45,701 bases of DNA from IMG/VR virus record IMGVR_UViG_3300045988_044939; one strand, 5' to 3'. How positions within the stretch are numbered: position 1 is the first letter of the stretch; each line of letters begins with the position of its first letter. The position numbers and the translations under genes are program-made. The DNA is from a virus. Below the pieces are notes generated by a model that saw only the letters and a program-made list of their open reading frames with translations, made no database searches and had not been told where the DNA came from. Shown here one piece after another: positions 718-36,561 of the stretch.

Positions 718-1077
718 CTTATTAGAAATCATGTCAATAAGTTTTTCTAAATTGTCCCATCCCTCATCATCCAATCTGGCTAATGCAGACACGAGACGGT
801 GTCGGAAAGAATCTTCTCCAGATTTCATTACGTCTGCAAGCATGGCAGAAATTTGTTTGTCTTTAATTCCGGGTACAAACATATTTCCTTTTCCTGTTCT
901 GAGCCATTCTTCACTCACTCCAAACTCTCTGCATATAGATTTGATAACAGCATCTGTTGGATTTCTTAAACCAGTTTCATAATTAGTAATGGTATTTCCC
1001 TTTACTCCAATTATGTCTCCAAATGCTGTCTGAGTGAGATTCTGGGATTTGCGCACTTGTTTGATTCTGTCTTTCAC
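715..1077 (-). CDS. XRE/cI-like HTH repressor (no peptidase domain)
   Basis: N-terminus IKQVRKSQNLTQTAFGDIIGVKGNTITNYETGLRNP is a classic HTH_3 motif. GTG start after GGAGGTGAGG. Divergent from the early rightward promoter. Confidence 0.85.
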   Translation of the reverse strand: MKDRIKQVRKSQNLTQTAFGDIIGVKGNTITNYETGLRNPTDAVIKSICREFGVSEEWLRTGKGNMFVPGIKDKQISAMLADVMKSGEDSFRHRLVSALARLDDEGWDNLEKLIDMISNK

Positions 1078-1097
1078 TTTTCCTCACCTCCAATGAT

Positions 1098-1176
1098 AAT
1101 ATATCATAAAAAACTCACAAAGTCAATATTTAGCGTTGACATATAACTCACATCGTGATATTATAAACTCACAAAG
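1098..1176. promoter_or_regulatory. immunity switch: leftward extended -10 promoter, rightward sigma-A promoter, three operator repeats
   Basis: Rightward promoter: TTGACA 1136-1141, 17 nt spacer, TATTAT 1159-1164. Leftward promoter: TGATATATT (reverse complement of 1098-1106). Operators: AACTCACAAAG at 1112-1122 and 1166-1176, AACTCACATCG at 1145-1155. Confidence 0.7.
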
Positions 1177-1191
1177 CAAGGAGGTGAAAAC

Positions 1192-1488
1192 ATGAAATAC
1201 AGTCCGCTCGGCAGTAAAAAAATGATATCTCAAACTTTCAATGGTGATTGCTTGAAAACCACTTTTGAAAGAGAGAACGAATTGAAGTCCGAATATGAAA
1301 TTTATGTAAACTGGATGAATCCGGATCAGTTAGCAGAAGTTTCATTTCAGTTGCCATTCCACGATTGGCAGACACTTGAAAAGTCTGAGGTTTGGAAAAA
1401 TCTGGATGAATTTCTTTCGGAGGTTGTGTATAGAAGTCTGTTAGGTTCTTTAGTTGCATTCTTTCGTGATAAATTGATTCACCAATAG
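1192..1488 (+). CDS. first early rightward ORF (cro position), unknown function
   Basis: Perfect AGGAGGTG RBS 6 nt before ATG 1192, directly downstream of the rightward promoter. No HTH recognised. Overlaps the antisense ORF 1238..1774 by 251 nt. Confidence 0.55.
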   Translation: MKYSPLGSKKMISQTFNGDCLKTTFERENELKSEYEIYVNWMNPDQLAEVSFQLPFHDWQTLEKSEVWKNLDEFLSEVVYRSLLGSLVAFFRDKLIHQ

Positions 1489-1774
1489 CGCACCCTTTTA
1501 AACATGAATAATGGGTTCCACTATACATGTAAGAAATATTTACGATTGATATGGCAATTCTGGAACGATTGATAATTTCAAAATGAACAATCAACTCATT
1601 ATTATCTTTCAACTTGAAACCAATAGGAATAAACTCTATTTTTTTTCGAGATTGGAATAAGTTCCATACAGTTCCAGCAGACCCTATTAACCCAAGCATA
1701 AAGGAAACATTTTCAAACGTAATGATTTCTTTAGCCGATTTTAAAATTGAAACAATTTGATTTATTTTAATCAC
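1238..1774 (-). CDS. leftward membrane protein embedded antisense in the early operon (start uncertain)
   Basis: 178-codon ORF whose first 95 aa look protein-like (TM FMLGLIGSAGTVWNLF, then a beta-rich segment). It lies downstream of the conserved promoter-leader element 1770-1809. The only starts are a GTG inside the SD, a non-canonical ATA, or ATG 1699 with no SD. The C-terminal third looks like antisense shadow. Confidence 0.4.
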   Translation of the reverse strand: MIKINQIVSILKSAKEIITFENVSFMLGLIGSAGTVWNLFQSRKKIEFIPIGFKLKDNNELIVHFEIINRSRIAISIVNISYMYSGTHYSCLKGCAIGESIYHERMQLKNLTDFYTQPPKEIHPDFSKPQTFQVSANRGMATEMKLLLTDPDSSSLHKFHIRTSIRSLFQKWFSSNHH

Positions 1775-1809
1775 CTCCCATATACAGGGAGTATATCACA
1801 AGAAAAGAG
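1770..1809 (-). promoter_or_regulatory. conserved 40-bp leftward promoter-leader element, copy A
   Basis: 36/40 identical to 2271-2310. On the minus strand it reads TGATATACT (extended -10), then CCCTGTATATGGGAGGTGAT (leader plus SD). Confidence 0.6.
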
Positions 1810-1817
1810 GTGAGTAT

Positions 1818-1970
1818 ATGTCTGAAAAAGAAAAAAGAATCATTGAAAAGCTGAAAGAAGCGATTCCTAATATGTCAGAGTTTGACAAGGGATACATTCT
1901 TGGTAAGACGGAAAGTTTTTCCGAGAATAAGCCAGATGATTCTGGTAAGGAGCAGAAAGAAAGTTCTTAA
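1818..1970 (+). CDS. 50-aa hypothetical protein (MSEKEKRIIEKLKEAIPNMSEFDKGYILG...)
   Basis: ATG 1818 after AGAGGTGAG, stop 1968-1970. Below the ORF-track cutoff. Confidence 0.55.
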   Translation: MSEKEKRIIEKLKEAIPNMSEFDKGYILGKTESFSENKPDDSGKEQKESS

Positions 1971-1988
1971 CTTGGAGGTGAAAACAAA

Positions 1989-2084
1989 TTGAAAAACAGA
2001 ATCGCATTCTGGATTCTTTGTTTTGTGCTTTCGGCTACCTGCGGAGCACTCGGAAGCCTACTCGCACAGTGGATGCTAAAGTAA
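1989..2084 (+). CDS. 31-aa hydrophobic peptide (TTG start)
   Basis: GGAGGTG (1975-1981) lies 7 nt before TTG 1989. Product LKNRIAFWILCFVLSATCGALGSLLAQWMLK is one TM helix. Its 3-prime end overlaps the convergent gene by 9 nt. Confidence 0.35.
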   Translation: MKNRIAFWILCFVLSATCGALGSLLAQWMLK

Positions 2085-2264
2085 CATCTGAGTGATTACA
2101 GTAGCCAGGAATCCAGTGAATCCGCCAACAACAGCACTAAATAAAGCTACTCGGAAATCATGTCGCCATTGCTGTTTCCGTAATTCTTTTTCTTTAGCTT
2201 CTTTTATTTGCTGTTCAAGGACGCTGTGCGGAACTATGGAGCCGTTTGCTATATTCGGTTTCAT
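2076..2264 (-). CDS. 62-aa tail-anchored membrane protein, leftward gene embedded in the early operon
   Basis: ATG (complement of 2262-2264) lies 10 nt after GGGAGG of conserved element copy B. C-terminal TM is FSAVVGGFTGFLATVITQMLL. Confidence 0.6.
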   Translation of the reverse strand: MKPNIANGSIVPHSVLEQQIKEAKEKELRKQQWRHDFRVALFSAVVGGFTGFLATVITQMLL

Positions 2265-2270
2265 ATTATT

Positions 2271-2310
2271 ATCACCTCCCATCTATAGGGAGTATACCAC
2301 AAGAAAGGAG
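2271..2310 (-). promoter_or_regulatory. conserved 40-bp leftward promoter-leader element, copy B
   Basis: 36/40 identical to 1770-1809. The minus strand reads TGGTATACT (extended -10) followed by CCCTATAGATGGGAGGTGAT. Confidence 0.6.
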
Positions 2311-2316
2311 CATAAA

Positions 2317-2646
2317 ATGAGCGAAGTTGATACTTACATCAAAGAAAATGCAGAAGTTCATCAGTTCGCCGCAGAGGTTGCGAGAATCATATCAGGCATT
2401 CCACAGATGCCAGAGTTCTCCTCGGAGAACATGAGCGTATCTGATGCAAGCAAGCTGATCGGACTTCCTGTAACATCAATCCGAGCAGGAATTGTATACG
2501 GATGGCTGCCGATCGGGACTGCTATCCAGAATAACAAGCCAGCAAAAAGCCTTTCCGGTGGCAGGATCACATACATCATAAGCCCTAGGAAAGTCTATGA
2601 AGTAACTGGTCATGTCTGGAAAGGCAAAGCTGCTCTCAATAAGTGA
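2317..2646 (+). CDS. putative DNA-binding protein (excisionase/MerR-like HTH)
   Basis: ATG 2317 after AAAGGAG. Segment MSVSDASKLIGLPVTSIRAGIVYGWLP resembles Xis/HTH_17-type helices. The upstream part of ORF 2092..2646 is antisense to gene 2076..2264. Confidence 0.5.
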   Translation: MSEVDTYIKENAEVHQFAAEVARIISGIPQMPEFSSENMSVSDASKLIGLPVTSIRAGIVYGWLPIGTAIQNNKPAKSLSGGRITYIISPRKVYEVTGHVWKGKAALNK

Positions 2647-2785
2647 GTGCCCCGGAGGGAGTCGACACCTCCACCCCGGAGCTTTGCATCTACTAAATCG
2701 CACTTAGTAGATACAGGTTAATTATAAGCCTCTATCTGCTAATTGTAAAGACAAATAAGAAAAAATAAGGAGAAATTAGCTAGAT

Positions 2786-2965
2786 ATGAGTGAAAACAGA
2801 AACGAAAATCAGCCAACATGGACTGACATCTCAGTAGCACTTGCTACTGAGATTGTCGAGGAAAGCAAGAAAAAGTCAAGGAGATGGTTCACAGCATGGA
2901 TTGTGACAGTCGCCGCACTGGTAGCCAGCAATCTTGCGTGGATCATAGGAGGTATCAGTGAATAA
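2786..2965 (+). CDS. 59-aa membrane protein
   Basis: ATG 2786 downstream of AAGGAG. C-terminal TM is WFTAWIVTVAALVASNLAWIIGG. Its stop overlaps the next start. Confidence 0.45.
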   Translation: MSENRNENQPTWTDISVALATEIVEESKKKSRRWFTAWIVTVAALVASNLAWIIGGISE

Positions 2966-26447: not shown

Positions 26448-27034
26448 ATAAGGAAGATTCGTAAGTGATTACAGTCACTTGACATAGATGCATTTTTTCA
26501 TTGATTCCTCCTTTCTTGGGTACGTGTCCTTAATAGAAAATGCAGTGTTTAGCTAACACAAGAAGCATGAGGTTGAAAAGCGAATGCAATTTCCGACACG
26601 TACCATTGCCGTTAGTGCATGGCGGCATACCTCCTTGTGAGCATATAACTGAATAGTGGAATCCAACCCGTGCAGAGGTGCGCGACAGTATAGGCGGTGT
26701 TGACGTAGCCCGAAACGTCTCGTGTTTAGGCATAGCACGTTAAATACCTTGCTAACCCGGGAATCCGGGTTATGTGGAAAGTACGTTAATGGTAGACTGA
26801 CAGGGTCGCTCCCTGGGTTCCGGTTCGATTCCGGGCTTTCCGCTTTGATTCGGTTAGAATTACGCTGTCTGTATACAGGCGGTTTATGATTCGGCTGAAT
26901 TTGCATAGAAGCAGTTGTGCAGAAACCAATGATATCAATGGAAGAACAGAAACTACTTGCGACTATGCTCAAACAACCCATGGGAAAAGGTTATTGCTTA
27001 TCCTGTTGACTGGAGGCCGGTCCGAAAAGCATAA
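26448..27034 (+). ncRNA. large structured noncoding RNA candidate (ROOL/GOLLD-class), boundaries approximate
   Basis: About 0.8 kb has no RBS-bearing ORF and starts after a promoter motif. Exact helices include 26519-26528/26595-26604 (10 bp), 26754-26760/26765-26771 (7 bp), 26903-26908/26963-26968 and 26463-26468/26475-26480. It is flanked and interrupted by tRNA-like elements. Confidence 0.55.
26775..26843 (+). other. tRNA-like element embedded in the noncoding region
   Basis: Acceptor TGGAAAG / CTTTCCG and canonical T-arm TCCGG-TTCGATT-CCGGG. The D-arm is weak, and the anticodon arm CAGGG-TCGCT-CCCTG has only a 5-nt loop with a very short variable region. Confidence 0.35.
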
Positions 27035-27108
27035 TGGAATGTAGCTCAGTTGGAAGAGCGGAGAGCACATAGCTCTTGACGTCGCAGGTTCGAATCCTGC
27101 CTTTCCGT
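27035..27108 (+). tRNA. tRNA or tRNA-like (anticodon CAU if the loop is 7 nt), atypical
   Basis: Canonical TA-GCTC-AGTTGGAA-GAGC D-arm and GCAGG-TTCGAAT-CCTGC T-arm. The acceptor TGGAATG/CTTTCCG has one U-U mismatch and a U1-G72 pair. The anticodon loop CACATAG has A33 and a pairable C32-G38. No encoded CCA. Confidence 0.55.
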
Positions 27109-27185
27109 TTACCTTGCCAGTGGTCTAACTGGCTTAATCCATTTACCTGCGGCGGCAGGTCAATAAACACGACCAGGAGGATGTT

Positions 27186-32934: not shown

Positions 32935-33435
32935 ATGGCTGCTGATGGCTCAGTCATTATTGATACTAGGATGGACACATCAGGTGTGCAAAACGGCGTA
33001 TCAGCAATCAGGCAGTCTTTTAACGGACTTGGCAGCGTAGTAAAAAAAATAGGTGTACTGATTGGCGGAGCATTCGCAATTGGGAAACTGGCCCAGTTTG
33101 GGAAAGAGTGCGTAGAGCTTGGCTCTAATCTGGCAGAAGTGCAGAATGTGGTCGATGTTACTTTTACAACCATGTCTGATAAGGTTAATGAATTTGCAAA
33201 GAACGCCATGACCTCTGCCGGTCTGTCAGAAACAATGGCAAAACAGTATGTCGGAACGTTCGGGGCAATGTCTAAGTCGTTCGGTTTCTCTGAGGCACAG
33301 GCTTACGATATGTCAACGGCTCTGACACAGTTAACTGGCGATGTGGCATCATTCTACAACATTTCACAAGACTTGGCTTATATAAAACTAAAGTCAGTTT
33401 TTACAGGAGAAACGGAAACACTTAAAGACTTGGGT
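32935..33435 (+). CDS. tape measure protein, exon 1
   Basis: Ends ...SVFTGETETLKDLG, inside the conserved TMP core motif. The TAA at 33436-33438 is intronic. Confidence 0.8.
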
Positions 33436-34335
33436 TAACAATTAGCTCCCTTACACAGCAATGTGTATTGAATAACATGGTGAACGAAGAAATCTTCGGT
33501 GTGTTGCTTTATGAGCAATGCTAACGGTAAAAGCCTAAAATTATTTAAAAAACTTGTGGTTATGACACCTATATGATATAATATTTATAGGAGGTGATTT
33601 CCATGAGTGAAGAAATTTGGAAAGATATTAACGGCTACGAAGGTCTGTATCAAGTAAGCAATCTGGGAAGAATAAAAAGTCTTGAGCGTAGATGCAAAGC
33701 AAAATGGTATACAAGAAAAGTACCAGAGAAAATTTATTCTCCTGCGCTTGATACTTACGGTTATCCAATAGTCTCTTTGCATAAAGACGGCAAAAAGAAA
33801 ACAATCACAATTCATAAATTGGTTGCAAATGCTTTTCTTAAAAAGCCGGACGGTTGCAATTCTATTAATCACATTGACGAAAACAAGCAGAATAATTGTG
33901 TTGAAAATCTTGAATGGTGTACTGTTCAAGAAAACAATGCTTATGGAACGAGAGTAGAACGACTAAGAAAAACTCAGCAAAGAGCAGTTCTACAATGTGA
34001 TTTAAATGGAAACGTAATCAAAGAATGGGAAGGAATGAACTTCCTTTGCAGAGAAACAGGATACGATCAAGGCCTAATATCTAAAGTATGCAACAATGTT
34101 TATAGGCATCGCACTGCATATGGATTCAAATGGAAATTTAAATAATCATGGTAATACCGTGCTAAGCATCGAAGAGTCTCAATAAGAGGCTCTTTTTTTG
34201 ATGAAAGTGTAACGACTATTCCGTAAGGAAGTAGGTTTAAGGTGAAATTCCCTATTCCGAAGTGCCATGCATCCAATTTGGATGAAGAGATAGTCTACTC
34301 CCCTAATAAATATCGGGAAACCGAGGGTATAAAGG
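33436..34335 (+). mobile_element. group I intron (IA2, T4 td-like core) carrying an HNH homing endonuclease ORF
   Basis: 5-prime junction TTGGGT|TAA as in td. The 3-prime core is TAACGACTATTCC..GGAAGTAGGTTTAAGGTG..AGATAGTCTACTCC and ends in G (34335). Joining the exons gives in-frame ...LKDLG-VVMTQSAL.... Confidence 0.8.
33603..34145 (+). CDS. HNH homing endonuclease (NUMOD4 + HNH_3)
   Basis: WKDINGYEGLYQVSNLGRIKS (NUMOD4) and INHIDENKQNNCVENLEWCTVQEN (HNH). ATG lies 6 nt after AGGAGGTG. Confidence 0.85.
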   Translation: MSEEIWKDINGYEGLYQVSNLGRIKSLERRCKAKWYTRKVPEKIYSPALDTYGYPIVSLHKDGKKKTITIHKLVANAFLKKPDGCNSINHIDENKQNNCVENLEWCTVQENNAYGTRVERLRKTQQRAVLQCDLNGNVIKEWEGMNFLCRETGYDQGLISKVCNNVYRHRTAYGFKWKFK

Positions 34336-36561
34336 GTCGTTATGACACAAAGTGCGCTTGACCAGTACGCACTGGCAAATGGTTATGGTAAAACCACATC
34401 TGCCATGACTGAGCAGGAGAAAGTAGCTCTCCGTCTGGCTTTTGTGCAGAAACAGTTATCAGCCGCATCTGGTGACTTCATCCGTACTTCTGACAGCTGG
34501 GCGAACCAAGTGCGAGTTATGCAGTTACAGCTGCAGTCTCTCAAGGCAACAGTCGGGCAGGGACTGATTAATATTTTCACGCCTGTTCTGAAAGTGATTA
34601 ATGTTCTGCTAGGCAAACTGGCAACTTTGGCGAATGCTTTCAAAAGCTTCACGGAGCTTATCACCGGTAAGAAATCCTCCGGTCAGACAAGCGGAAGTGG
34701 AGCAGGTCTCACAGGCGATGCAAGTGGCGTGCAGGATACGGCAGATGCTTACGGACAGGCAGCAGACAATGCCGGCAAGTTAGCAGATTCTACAGAAGAT
34801 GTAGCCGATGCAACAAAAGATGCGGCAAAAGCGGCGAAAGGATATCTTAGTCCACTCGATGAAATTAATCGGTATTCTACGCAGGATGCATCATCAACAG
34901 CAAGCAAAACTCCGTCGACATCCGGTAGCGGGAGTGGCGGCGGCGGAACATCTCTTCCGAGTGCAGTCAGCAACGTAGATTATGGAAAGATGGCGGAGGG
35001 TGAAACCGCTCTGGACAAAATCAGCAAATCAGCTGAAAAGCTTGCGAAGCTCTTAAAAAGGCTCTGGAAACCATTCCAGGACGCTTGGAAAAAAGAGGGT
35101 AAGAACACCATTGACGCGGCAAACATTGCCTTGTCGGGAATCGCAAAGCTCGCTAAGAGTGTAGGCAGGAGCCTTGTAGAAGTCTGGACAAATGGAACAG
35201 GTACGACAATGCTTACAAACATGTTAAGGATTGCTCAGAATGTGCTTAAGACTATCGGTAACATTGCATCCGGTTTTGCCGATGCGTGGAACAAGAATAA
35301 TGTCGGAACGCAGATTATCCAAAACATTGCAGATGCTCTTGTAGTAGTCATGCAGTTTGTTGAGAGGATTGCCGCAGATACGGCAACATGGGCGGCGAAC
35401 TTGGACTTCTATCCGCTATTGGAATCTATCAGCAATTTAACGAGCGCATTTGCTCCAATTCTGGAATCTATTGGAAATGTCCTTGAATGGATTTACAACA
35501 ACATTGTCCTCCCGATGCTGAAATGGGTCATTGAAGTAGGACTTCCGACAGTGATTAATTTAGTGTCGAAAGTAGCTACGTTTCTCGCCGATCATCAGTC
35601 GATCGTTGAAGCGTTCGGTGTGGCCCTGATCGGGGCGTTCGCAGCGGCAAAGATTGCGGGATTGGCATCGAGTGTTATTAAGAGTGTGTCTGGAATAGCC
35701 ATGTCTGCAAAGGGACTTATCTCGTTAATGACTGGTACAGGTGGCATCATGGGTGGTATCAAAGCTATTGCAACAGCTATCGGACCAGGTGGAGTCTTTG
35801 TTCTTGCAGTCGGCGCATGTATTGCGATTGGTGTATTACTGTACAAAAACTGGGACAAAATCAAAGAAATGGCTGGAAAGGTATGGGATTGGATTTCTAA
35901 TAAAACAAGGCGTTTTGTTGAGGATATTGGGAATAAGCTCAGAGGTCTAGCTACCAAAATGACGACCATTTGGGGGAACATGAAGGCCAGCGCACATCAG
36001 AAATGGAATGCTATATGGTCTACTGTTAGTGGCTTTGCTGAAAGAATCAAGAACGCTATTGTTGATAAATTCACATCCGCCAAAAACACTGTAGTCGATG
36101 TATTTAACGGAATGAGAGATGCTATCAGGTCTGTTCTGAACAACATCATAAGTGTTGTAAACGGGGCTATCAGTAAAGTGAATGGAGTTGTTAGTGCGAT
36201 TGAATCAGCGTTCTCTTTCGGCCCATGGAAAGTACCGACCCCATTCGGCTCAAAGACTATCGGATTCAGAGCTACTTTCCCAAGAGTGCCGACGGTCCCG
36301 TATTTAGCCAAGGGTGCAGTTATTCCACCAAGAAGTGAGTTCCTTGCAGTCTTAGGAGACCAGAAGCAGGGTAACAACATCGAGACACCAGAAGCTCTAC
36401 TCAGAAAGATTGTCCGAGAAGAAACAGCAGGACGGCAGGCAGGCGGTGGAAGTTACCGATTTACAGCGCAGATCAACCGCAGGACACTGTTTGACGAGAT
36501 GATGAAAGAAGCACAGATGAGACGAGATACAAGCGGTAGAAACCCGTTCGAGATGGCATAG
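34336..36561 (+). CDS. tape measure protein, exon 2
   Basis: VVMTQSALDQYALANGYGK... continues the TMP core, with a long helical and TM-rich body. Stop TAG 36559-36561. Confidence 0.8.
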   Translation, partial: VVMTQSALDQYALANGYGKTTSAMTEQEKVALRLAFVQKQLSAASGDFIRTSDSWANQVRVMQLQLQSLKATVGQGLINIFTPVLKVINVLLGKLATLANAFKSFTELITGKKSSGQTSGSGAGLTGDASGVQDTADAYGQAADNAGKLADSTEDVADATKDAAKAAKGYLSPLDEINRYSTQDASSTASKTPSTSGSGSGGGGTSLPSAVSNVDYGKMAEGETALDKISKSAEKLAKLLKRLWKPFQDAWKKEGKNTIDAANIALSGIAKLAKSVGRSLVEVWTNGTGTTMLTNMLRIAQNVLKTIGNIASGFADAWNKNNVGTQIIQNIADALVVVMQFVERIAADTATWAANLDFYPLLESISNLTSAFAPILESIGNVLEWIYNNIVLPMLKWVIEVGLPTVINLVSKVATFLADHQSIVEAFGVALIGAFAAAKIAGLASSVIKSVSGIAMSAKGLISLMTGTGGIMGGIKAIATAIGPGGVFVLAVGACIAIGVLLYKNWDKIKEMAGKVWDWISNKTRRFVEDIGNKLRGLATKMTTIWGNMKASAHQKWNAIWSTVSGFAERIKNAIVDKFTSAKNTVVDVFNGMRDAIRSVLNNIISVVNGAISKVNGVVSAIESAFSFGPWKVPTPFGSKTIGFRATFPRVPTVPYLAKGAVIPPRSEFLAVLGDQKQGNNIETPEALLRKIVREETAGRQAGGGSYRFTAQINRRTLFDEMMKEAQMRRDTSGRNPFEMA

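Follow-up and report, generated by a model that had tools for sequence, protein, structure and literature searches.

Evidence for a mobile group I intron with an I-HmuI-type endonuclease gene in the tape-measure gene of a gut phage

Why should the tape-measure protein (TMP) gene of an otherwise complete phage be listed as two separate genes with an endonuclease gene between them? The question is raised by a stretch of viral DNA of 45,701 nucleotides (the window), whose remainder amounts to a complete phage genome in which the genes for terminase, portal, capsid, tail and lysis are intact. A preliminary description had attributed the split to a td-like group I intron carrying an HNH homing endonuclease, and had remarked that the ORF track shows two genes instead; the ORF list indeed gives the split halves. 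We consider it very likely that a mobile group I intron of subgroup IA occupies positions 33436-34335, within the TMP gene of a temperate siphovirus-type gut phage. The intron, its endonuclease and its coordinates as first described are upheld by the predicted fold, by covariation and by alleles that lack the intron.

All features discussed here lie on the plus strand. TMP exon 1 (32935-33435), delimited by the ORF list and by alignment to intron-less alleles, has 167 codons and ends in TETLKDLG. Its frame is closed after ...FTGETETLKDLG by the TAA at 33436-33438, and this stop forms the UAA start of the predicted 900-nt intron (33436-34335), whose 3′ end is the omega-G at 34335. The frame reopens at 34336 with VVMTQSALDQYALANGYGK, where exon 2 (34336-36561; 741 codons and a stop) begins with VVMTQSAL, as given by the ORF list and a match to phrog_1535. 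Deletion of 33436-34335 in silico yields one TMP frame of 908 codons and a stop (909), and the spliced protein has a single continuous match to phrog_1535 over residues 14-906 (E 5.5e-160). The stop, the resumption 900 nt later and the 909-codon frame had all been proposed before, and they prove exact. The GC content of the intron is 0.357 versus 0.445 and 0.471 for the exons. Pfam has no match for exon 1 alone, and neither the TMP N-terminal region nor the endonuclease has one in NCBIfam.

An open frame alone is weak evidence, because many other in-frame deletions likewise leave the TMP frame open. Decisive evidence for the boundaries comes from the gapless alignment of the spliced DNA junction, predicted to be ...AAAGACTTGGGT|GTCGTTATGACA..., to the intron-less alleles L001, L002 and L003 of related gut phages. 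In these relatives the position is covered by a single unbroken protein instead of two. Boundaries moved by -1 or -2 give an identical protein (GGG for GGT), and those given here are preferred because they place a U at -1 and a G (G34335) at the end of the intron. The 5′ junction is GACTTGGGT|TAACAATT and its T4 td counterpart is TCTTGGGT|TAATTGAGG, so that the TTGGGT|TAA start was correctly likened to that of td. In the alleles L086 and L087, the junction reads DLG|IVMTQ.

The 5′ part of the intron can be modelled as a series of helices beginning at the splice site. P1 (33432-33448; 98% paired) joins exon GGGU and intron UAA with UUAGCUC; only four of its base pairs involve the exon, and the U33435-G33445 wobble at the 5′ splice site is kept in 14 of 14 sequences. 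P2 (33453-33466) is the hairpin ACACA-GCAA-UGUGU, in which four of five pairs are changed on both sides; it occurs in five sequence versions, all with a GNRA loop. The P3 5′ strand, CAUGGUG (33476-33482), pairs with 34263-34269 in a pseudoknot with P7. P3 is 100% paired and has five covarying versions (window, PH15, SPR, EH93P2 and CS266P2). Between P3 and J3/4 stand two extra hairpins (33485-33521), P3.1 (33485-33498) and P3.2 (33501-33521), which are present with differing sequences in all five related introns and missing in td and the Twort terminase intron; P3.1 is also found by RNAalifold. The segment 33524-33535 contains the P4 5′ strand ACGGUA (33524-33529), J4/5 AAA and the P5 5′ strand GCC (33533-33535), and its counterpart at 34150-34160 contains the P5 3′ strand (34150-34152), J5/4 AA and the P4 3′ strand UACCGU (34155-34160). 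P4 is 100% paired, with a version in SPR (ACAGGG/CCCUGU) that is compensatory at three pairs. P5 is short and weaker, being 86% paired with a non-standard first pair in 6 of 14 sequences, and the endonuclease ORF lies between its two strands (33535/34150).

The 3′ part holds P6, the catalytic core and the P9 module. P6 (34161-34208) covaries, with the versions GCU/AGU, GCC/GGU and GUC/GAU across the window and its relatives; as GCU/AGU it surrounds the long hairpin P6a (34167-34203). P6a has the look of an intrinsic terminator with a U-run, and a terminator scan gives a match at 34171-34195. The PH15 intron has an equivalent P6a hairpin and U-run of different sequence. The hairpin and U-run (34171-34199) precede the catalytic core, and a real terminator there would work against transcription continuing into exon 2. 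The core itself (34214-34295) comprises P7 (34214-34219/34290-34295), P7.1 (34220-34229), P7.2 (34234-34258), the P3 3′ strand (34263-34269), P8 (34270-34284) and J8/7, and the three core blocks quoted in the preliminary description are present, as is the terminal G34335. P7.1 and P7.2 are pairings typical of subgroup IA, located between P7 and the P3 3′ strand, and both are found by RNAalifold; P7.1 has GUAA, GCGA and GCAA as variants of its GNRA loop, and compensatory changes are seen in P7.2. The P9 module (34301-34335) consists of P9 (34301-34303/34325-34327), P9a (UCGG-GAAA-CCGA, 34313-34324) and the 3′ tail to the omega-G, and is 90-96% identical to introns of Staphylococcus, Listeria, Enterococcus and Bacillus phages. 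A search for P10 found no convincing pairing.

This fold replaced a hand-made model with P3 as GAAUA/UAUUC, P4/P5 as the hairpin at 33485-33498 and the ORF in P6a, which was dropped after comparison with PH15, SPR, EH93P2 and CS266P2. The adopted model pairs CAUGGUG with UGCCAUG in P3 and ACGGUA with UACCGU in P4, and it puts the ORF in L5. A run of RNAalifold on the isolated 5′ fragment was usable only for P2 and P3.1, since the true partner strands are absent from that fragment and spurious long-range pairs arise. It also paired the 5′ exon UUGGGU with GCCUAA (33533-33538), a pairing treated as coincidental or unexplained and set aside because position 33533 varies between G and A and because the canonical guide sequence is at the 5′ end.

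The predicted P1-P9 fold is supported by covariation. Without constraints, RNAalifold finds P7, P7.1, P7.2, P8, P9 and P9a, with compensatory changes in 12 of 28 pairs. The full model has 86 pairs, including the P3/P7 pseudoknot, and was scored on an alignment of 14 sequences. In this alignment 97.5% of cells are paired, compared to 37-47% when partners are slid, and 11 pairs are changed on both sides, compared to 2.6±1.1 in shuffles, none of which reaches 11 (0 of 500). P3, P4, P6, P7 and P8 all have compensatory versions in relatives.

The family model R1 reaches 65.7 bits on the Twort terminase intron, which lies outside its training set, and 32.3 bits (E 1.4e-7) on the core of td. With R1 and the unconstrained alignment fold, the group I core that the preliminary description expected under a covariance model is recovered. 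The Rfam search that it proposed came out differently: RF00028 at its gathering threshold finds no intron in the whole window, and a permissive search gives 23.6 bits (cut-off 50; E 0.0014) over the 3′ half of the intron only. This shortfall is not evidence against an intron, because RF00028 also misses td and five related phage introns, having no match on those of T4 td, PH15, SPR, EH93P2, Twort and CS266P2. RF00028 is blind to this intron subgroup, and the core is also split by an ORF. The distantly related HNH loci (35-53% amino acid identity; L050-L081 and L088-L090) have no match to the intron-core model and add no covariation.

Loop L5 contains what appears to be a self-contained gene. 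The homing endonuclease gene (33603-34145) encodes 180 amino acids of the I-HmuI type, with NUMOD4 (PF07463; 65.5 bits, cut-off 23.4, E 5e-18) and HNH_3 (PF13392; 27.6 bits, cut-off 24.8, E 2e-6) domains above their Pfam cut-offs. It has a full-length match to I-HmuI (PDB 1U3E) over residues 6-179 (E 4.5e-17), and it also matches phrog_59. At the catalytic-His position, its His90 (...NHIDENKQNN...) is aligned to the His of I-HmuI (...DHKDGNKDNN...). The Shine-Dalgarno sequence AGGAGGTG (33589-33596) lies 6 nt before the ATG at 33603, in agreement with the earlier reading of a NUMOD4/HNH ORF with its own RBS. Further upstream within the intron, a promoter-like site (33554-33582) can be read from the sequence as TTGTGG, a 17-nt spacer and TG-n-TATAAT. 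This site is not listed by a consensus promoter scan because its -35 hexamer has only three of six matches, and it may function as an intron-internal promoter.

The same features bear on a different reading, in which a free-standing HNH gene has entered the TMP gene and the two halves are translated separately and assembled non-covalently, without splicing. Such an arrangement is reportedly found in the split nrdA of Aeromonas phage Aeh1. The two ORFs of the ORF track would fit it, as would the endonuclease's own RBS and promoter-like site, and the second half may start at the ATG at 34342, which has a G-rich stretch a few bases upstream. However, this ATG is the conserved internal Met of VVMTQ, which is present in intron-less alleles as well. 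Moreover, the approximately 360 non-coding nucleotides around the ORF are conserved beyond the exons, contain a compensatory group I core and are homologous to annotated and known introns, while a U at -1, a 3′ G and pairing of P1 with the exon are not needed for plain insertion of a gene. We therefore regard separate translation as very improbable.

If the insert is a group I intron, it may still be one that has ceased to splice. On this account the element is a remnant, the TMP is inactive and the contigs are defective prophages. The short P1, the absence of a clear P10 and the terminator-like hairpin within the intron would be in keeping with such decay. Against this, both exons are open in all 44 intron-bearing viral-contig alleles, as far as the loci reach, and the TMP codons differ from those of L005 by 65 synonymous and 4 non-synonymous changes. 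This pattern indicates that the host gene is functional and under purifying selection. In addition, the predicted ribozyme helices stay paired via compensatory changes, the endonuclease ORF is intact in at least 44 copies and the phage genome is otherwise complete, so that a dead gene is scarcely more than a slight chance. Virtually no weight is given to three other kinds of intervening element, whose sole support is the gene interruption itself and which can be taken as already refuted by the sequence. An in-frame stop at the start of the insert closes the TMP frame, contrary to an intein; against a group II intron, the core is group I and Pfam finds no domain besides NUMOD4 and HNH_3, with no reverse transcriptase; and the gaps known for translational bypassing are far shorter than 900 nt.

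The distribution of the group I intron suggests that it is mobile. Its carriers number 44 viral contigs and 2 genome contigs, all with the intron at an identical site; among them its RNA parts are 86-100% identical, compared to 68-94% for the exons, whose identity drops as low as 68-74%. At least 80 near-identical TMP alleles are without it, and the peptide is unchanged at 71 further empty sites beyond L001-L003. The empty sites, which encode an equal peptide, show approximately 10 synonymous differences within 24 nt: the intron-type empty site is ACGGAAACACTTAAAGACTTGGGTGTCGTTATGACACAAAGT and the common one is ACAGAAACGCTCAAGGACCTCGGCGTGGTAATGACCCAGTCG. Identity between carriers peaks beside the junction (0.96/0.89) and falls to 0.82, while identity between carriers and empty alleles is lowest beside the junction (0.70-0.77) and rises to 0.9. 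These profiles reveal a gradient, read as co-conversion, on the flanks of the predicted intron. Homing introns are characterized by presence/absence polymorphism, by higher conservation of the intron than of its exons and by co-conversion, and all three are found at this locus. The gradient and the distinct flank haplotype also offer indirect support for site-specific nicking or cleavage near the insertion site by the endonuclease. The breakpoint of one mosaic allele lies at the intron, and intron-type flanks occur at two of the empty sites.

A mechanism can be proposed from these features. The TMP gene would be transcribed through the intron, and the RNA would fold as a P1-P9 ribozyme. An external guanosine would attack after U33435, held in the P1 U-G wobble, and the freed exon 1 would then attack after G34335 to give an mRNA for one TMP of 908 amino acids. 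Both self-splicing and guanosine dependence are predictions from the sequence. L5 would serve as an independent cassette, with a promoter-like site, a strong RBS and the 180-residue endonuclease. During co-infection or prophage contact, the endonuclease would nick or cut a TMP allele that lacks the intron, close to the point of insertion, its cleavage site and strand being presumed by analogy with I-HmuI. Recombinational repair from the intron-bearing genome would then copy the intron together with adjoining exon sequence.

Recognition of the intron changes how such genomes are read. Gene callers give two unrelated ORFs and an HNH gene, where a 908-residue tape measure is restored once the intron is recognized. 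The length of the TMP is commonly regarded as determining that of the tail, and the restored TMP therefore matters for phage classification. Public records of related introns are misannotated as well: the EH93P2 terminase is given as two CDS, and the split genes of CS266P2 and SPR are termed "hypothetical". The locus is also a natural data set for the study of intron homing in phages of the human gut: near-identical phage contigs number in the hundreds, and a minority of them have the intron. General knowledge of group I introns or TMP genes is left unchanged.

A broader reading, which we hold to be doubtful, is that the two extra hairpins between P3 and J3/4, the near-invariant P9 module (>90%) and the P6a terminator define an unnamed IA sub-lineage. 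It would be a modular chassis across Firmicute phages that swaps endonucleases (HNH, GIY-YIG) and host genes (TMP, terminase, DNA polymerase III alpha). The range of the P9 module under this reading covers Staphylococcus, Listeria, Enterococcus, Bacillus, Clostridium and gut Lachnospiraceae phages. If it were true, the P6a terminator would close the promoter-RBS-endonuclease cassette in L5, and would tie expression of the TMP to antitermination or to folding of the ribozyme during transcription.

The intron resembles several known systems to different degrees. The term "td-like" applies only loosely. Like T4 td, the window has the 5′ splice hexamer TTGGGT|TAA, a homologous P7/P7.1/P7.2/P8 core, an in-frame stop that opens the intron and a free-standing endonuclease ORF, and to this extent the earlier comparison stands. 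It does not extend to the location of the ORF (the P6a loop in td, L5 here), to the type of endonuclease (GIY-YIG I-TevI in td, HNH here) or to the extra hairpins, as td has none after P3. The P9 region of td is also different, and its host gene is td in a Gram-negative phage. On a strict definition, a close relative of td would have an ORF in P6a, a GIY-YIG endonuclease and nothing between P3 and P4, none of which is found here.

The nearest relatives are introns of Firmicute phages, namely those of Staphylococcus phage PH15 terminase, Bacillus phage SPR, Enterococcus phage EH93P2 terminase, Clostridium phage CS266P2 and Twort terminase. The PH15 large-terminase intron (DQ834250, CDS join 720..2952) is the closest sequence relative found, with 75% identity over the 3′ 180 nt. 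The 5′ 180 nt have no blastn relatives among annotated phages, and the similarity to PH15 there is by eye only. The two introns share their start (GGGT|TAAC) and a GNRA-looped P2; in both, P3 is followed by the pair of extra hairpins and P4, L5 houses an ORF, the P6a hairpin is accompanied by a U-run, and P7-P9 are present. However, the PH15 intron interrupts a terminase gene and its endonuclease is of the GIY-YIG (SegB-like) type, whereas that of the window is in TMP and carries an HNH enzyme. The two thus have a common ribozyme in which the endonuclease has been exchanged. I-HmuI, from the DNA polymerase gene intron of Bacillus phage SPO1, is a full-length homologue of the window endonuclease with an equal domain order and approximately 35% identity, as judged by eye from the alignment.

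TMP genes interrupted by group I introns, in some cases with an HNH endonuclease, have been published previously, and Lactobacillus phage JCL1032 is another phage with a published TMP intron. Prophages of the Bacillus cereus group carry TMP-IVS1, IVS2 and IVS3a/b of class IA1/IA2, which are polymorphic in presence and absence, are related to introns of SPbeta, PH15 and Twort, and include an H-N-H endonuclease encoded by IVS3a of B. weihenstephanensis KBAB4 (Tourasse & Kolsto 2008, PMC2504315). By published description they match the window in host gene class and intron class, but they belong to different phages and hosts, the window phage being of a human-gut Lachnospiraceae type. Vibrio phage ICP1 has an intron in its TMP gene that carries an HNH-3 endonuclease, and splicing to full-length TMP was demonstrated by RNA-seq and RT-PCR (Barth et al. 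2023, PMC10448857). ICP1 is of an unrelated lineage with a Gram-negative host, and its likeness to the window is likewise by published description. The same work reports that TMP genes are often interrupted and that nuclease genes mark recombination boundaries (PMC10448857), and the related locus L014 similarly has a nuclease gene at a recombination boundary.

The tail tape-measure protein (TMP) gene of the window is interrupted by a 900-nt element (33436-34335, + strand) that, on the evidence of its sequence and predicted structure, is very probably a splicing-competent mobile group I intron. The TMP frame that opens at 32935 ends ...FTGETETLKDLG, is followed by TAA at 33436-33438, and reopens at 34336 with VVMTQSALDQYALANGYGK, from where it runs to 36561. 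Excision of 33436-34335 leaves a single open reading frame (ORF) of 908 codons plus a stop. Both the stop with reopening 900 nt later and the restored frame of 909 codons had been noticed in the preliminary description, and both can be read in the sequence. A frame left open by a deletion is weak evidence by itself, and dozens of alternative deletions with ends up to 12 nt from these boundaries also keep it open; the decisive evidence is provided by intron-less relatives. A query of 201 aa across the junction gives one unbroken match each in MT835997, MT836350, and MT835739, which are human-faecal phage contigs (98-99.5% identity), and matches the TMPs of Anaerostipes, Streptococcus, Solobacterium, and other phages at 44-75%. 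Related phages thus have one uninterrupted protein and, at the DNA level, the alignment of the joined exons with intron-less relatives crosses the junction without a gap. Boundary shifts of -1 or -2 nt yield an identical protein, and the boundaries used here are those that give U at -1 and a 3′-terminal G. In addition, residues 14-906 of the spliced product match PHROG 1535 (tail length tape measure protein) in a single stretch (E 5.5e-160).

The 3′ 190 nt of the intron are similar to several phage introns, with 75% identity to the PH15 terminase intron and to an element of Bacillus phage SPR. The final 50-80 nt are 90-96% identical to segments of Enterococcus, Listeria (A511-like), Staphylococcus (Twort, K-like), Bacillus, and Clostridium phages. 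The P7′-P9 module GATAGTCTACTCCCCTAATAAATATCGGGAAACCGAGGGTA (34290-34333, +) recurs at 90-96% identity in introns from over 200 records of phages that infect Staphylococcus, Listeria, Enterococcus, Bacillus, and Clostridium; its conservation, far above that of the remaining ribozyme, suggests a shared or exchanged peripheral module.

Side-by-side reading of the PH15, SPR, EH93P2, CS266P2, and window introns reveals one common predicted architecture, all on the + strand here. P1 (33432-33448) carries the U33435-G33445 wobble, P2 (33453-33466) has a GNRA loop, and P3 (33476-82 with 34263-69) forms a pseudoknot with P7. Two extra hairpins, P3.1 (33485-98) and P3.2 (33501-21), are followed by J3/4, a UAA directly 5′ of P4 (33524-29 with 34155-60), and by P5 (33533-35 with 34150-52), which closes the loop that holds an endonuclease ORF. 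P6 (34161-63 with 34206-08) bears the long hairpin P6a (34167-34203). The remainder consists of P7 (34214-19 with 34290-95), P7.1 (34220-29, GNRA loop), P7.2 (34234-58), P8 (34270-84), P9 and P9a (34301-27, GAAA loop), and the omega-G at 34335. The two hairpins between the P3 5′ strand and J3/4 (33485-33521; 1568-1606 in locus L004, and in L082, L083, and L085) keep their position in five related introns and are missing from the T4 td intron and the Twort terminase intron. P3.2 is always closed by G-C, U-G, and G-U pairs (GUG/UGC), the motif of the inner end of P3. The term "P3.1" denotes an optional group I pairing (PMC3873408).

Unconstrained RNAalifold analysis of 15 3′ domains recovers P7, P7.1, P7.2, P8, P9, and P9a, with compensatory changes at 12 of 28 pairs. 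A covariance model built from this alignment, termed R1, detects the Twort terminase intron, which lies outside its training set, at 65.7 bits (E 5e-14) and the td core at 32.3 bits (E 1.4e-7), and has no match in the window beyond the intron. P3 exists in five covarying versions in five introns (CAUGGUG/UGCCAUG, CUUGGUG/CGCCAAG, GUCAGUG/CGCUGAC, UCUAGUG/CGCUAGA, and CUCGUG/UGCGAG), and P2 in five sequence versions, every one with a GNRA loop. When the full 86-pair model is applied to 14 sequences from which the ORF has been removed, pairing holds in 97.5% of cells, compared to 37-47% with partners slid by 1-3 columns; both sides change at 11 pairs, compared to 2.6±1.1 in shuffles, and the observed value is reached in 0 of 500. 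Weaker elements are P1, to which the exon contributes only four pairs; P5, a short helix whose first pair is non-standard in 6 of the 14 sequences; and P10, for which no pairing was found. The exon end UUGGGU (33430-33435) can alternatively pair with GCCUAA (33533-33538, the P5 5′ strand) over 6 bp at a strength equal to that of the canonical P1, and position 33533 varies between G and A among copies. This is possibly an alternative pairing that would hide the splice site, or a coincidence.

A search with the Rfam group I model RF00028, which the preliminary description had proposed, stays below the gathering score in the window; a permissive local search gives only a sub-threshold match of 23.6 bits (E 0.0014, 34091-34317) that aligns J6/7-P7, P8, and J8/7-P7′. 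The same model finds zero matches at E≤0.1 in the loci of five related phage introns, among them that of the PH15 terminase (annotated in GenBank as a joined CDS), and zero at E≤1 in the locus of T4 td, the archetypal self-splicing phage intron. Because RF00028 is blind to all of these, the Rfam result is uninformative for this subgroup.

I-HmuI, the intron endonuclease of Bacillus phage SPO1, is a strand-specific nicking enzyme. The 180-aa product of the intron ORF (33603-34145, +) is its full-length homologue (PDB 1U3E; E 4.5e-17, residues 6-179 against 3-172), with His90 in NHIDENKQNN aligned to the His in DHKDGNKDNN. As first reported, the protein is of the NUMOD4/HNH type, with NUMOD4 and HNH_3 domains that both exceed the Pfam cut-offs, and it has its own ribosome-binding site, the Shine-Dalgarno sequence AGGAGGTG (33589-33596, +) 6 nt 5′ of the ATG at 33603. 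The window has no HNH gene other than this one. A putative promoter, TTGTGG-17 nt-TGATATAAT (33554-33582, +), can be read 5′ of the ORF; with only three of six matching positions in its -35 hexamer, it is absent from the output of a consensus scan. P6a (34167-34203, +) resembles an intrinsic terminator, with a 10-bp stem and then 7 T, directly 3′ of the ORF and 5′ of the catalytic core. An equivalent hairpin and U-run of different sequence occur in the PH15 intron, whereas the U-run is missing from the EH93P2 and SPR introns.

All 44 viral-contig carriers keep both exons open, within the extent of each locus, and a comparison of 230 codons between the window and the close allele L005 shows 65 synonymous and 4 non-synonymous differences. 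The window is an otherwise complete temperate siphovirus-type genome, in which the primase/helicase, large terminase, portal, head proteins, tail protein, endolysin, and integrase are intact. This means that a functional TMP must be made, and therefore that the insert must be removed at the RNA level. In the best-supported account, the late transcript would self-splice by the standard group I route, and the endonuclease would drive homing of the intron into empty alleles. Elsewhere, the window contains a RAGATH-21 motif (26519-26604, +; 75.3 bits against a gathering score of 70.3, E 7e-13) in the head-gene region, ~430 nt 5′ of a phage-encoded tRNA-Met gene (anticodon CAT; 27034-27109, +; ARAGORN and Rfam, 41 bits).

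With the endonuclease protein as query, this intron is found at an identical TMP position in 44 IMG/VR contigs and in two genome contigs, of which one has the label Lachnospiraceae and the other lies in a Prevotella-labelled bin. Identity to the window is 93-100% for the RNA parts and 70-94% for the flanking exons in viral-contig carriers, and 86-91% and 68-71%, respectively, in genome-contig carriers, so the intron is more conserved than its host gene. The junction peptide matches at least 594 stretches, the best 80 of which are all uninterrupted (97-99% amino acid identity), and carriers are thus a minority. Identity between carriers peaks in the 30 nt flanking each intron side (0.96 and 0.89) and decays to ~0.82, while that between carriers and empty alleles is lowest beside the intron (0.70-0.77) and climbs to ~0.9. 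At 71 empty sites the peptide GETETLKDLG|VVMT is identical to that of carriers, with ~10 synonymous differences from the carrier haplotype in a stretch of 24 nt, among them a switch between Ser codon families (AGT versus TCG or TCA). Intron-type flanks occur in only 2 of the 71 (among L092-L171). The intron also has a lower GC content (0.357) than the exons (0.445 and 0.471). The mosaic TMP allele L014 (IMGVR_UViG_3300045988_016306) switches exactly at the intron: exon 1 near the junction is 97-100% identical to the window, and exon 2, which is L039-like, only ~70%. This agrees with a published view of nuclease genes as markers of recombination boundaries. Together, these features are the marks that would be expected of homing and exon co-conversion from a diverged donor.

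The two empty alleles with intron-type flanks, …AAAGACTTGGGT|GTTGTTATGACACAAAG… and …AAAGATTTGGGT|GTCGTTATGACGCAAAG…, may bear the footprint of a precise loss of the intron, or may be naive target sites that are susceptible. The 12-kb contig CAVIPV010000089.1 (L086) carries an intron-bearing TMP and is binned in a Prevotella sp. MAG, a label that is probably a binning error; the remaining host hints (Anaerostipes phages, Lachnospiraceae MGYG-HGUT-00118) are all Lachnospiraceae.

Three public records of related introns (OP172805.1, L083; OP172776.1, L085; OM236515.1, L082) are annotated as separate genes; R1 scores them at 104-125 bits, all three being within its training set. In EH93P2 the large terminase is annotated as two CDS that flank a "hypothetical protein". 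In Clostridium phage CS266P2 an I-HmuI-like gene separates the parts of a DNA polymerase III alpha-like gene, and in SPR a ~400-nt intron with no annotated endonuclease ORF splits spr_85/spr_84. The present case, clear-cut and thoroughly documented, can help annotation and illustrates homing in gut phages at the level of populations.

A specialist would find nothing surprising in a TMP group I intron. Group I introns occupy three sites in TMP genes of B. cereus-group prophages (IA1 or IA2, one with an H-N-H endonuclease), and a Lactobacillus phage JCL1032 TMP intron is likewise listed (PMC2504315). Interruptions of TMP are frequent, and in ICP1 RNA-seq and RT-PCR have confirmed the splicing of a TMP intron that carries an HNH-3 endonuclease (Barth et al. 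2023, PMC10448857). The kind of element is thus already known. The observation in the preliminary description is confirmed as a whole, and its intron interpretation is supported, with details corrected. Its term "td-like" applies only to the splice hexamer and core, which both introns share; the ORF lies in L5 rather than in P6a, the endonuclease is HNH rather than GIY-YIG, and the two post-P3 hairpins and the P9 module also differ. The closest relative is the PH15 terminase intron, which has the ribozyme in common with the window but a GIY-YIG endonuclease and a terminase host gene instead of HNH and TMP. This pair illustrates endonuclease exchange and retargeting in one ribozyme lineage.
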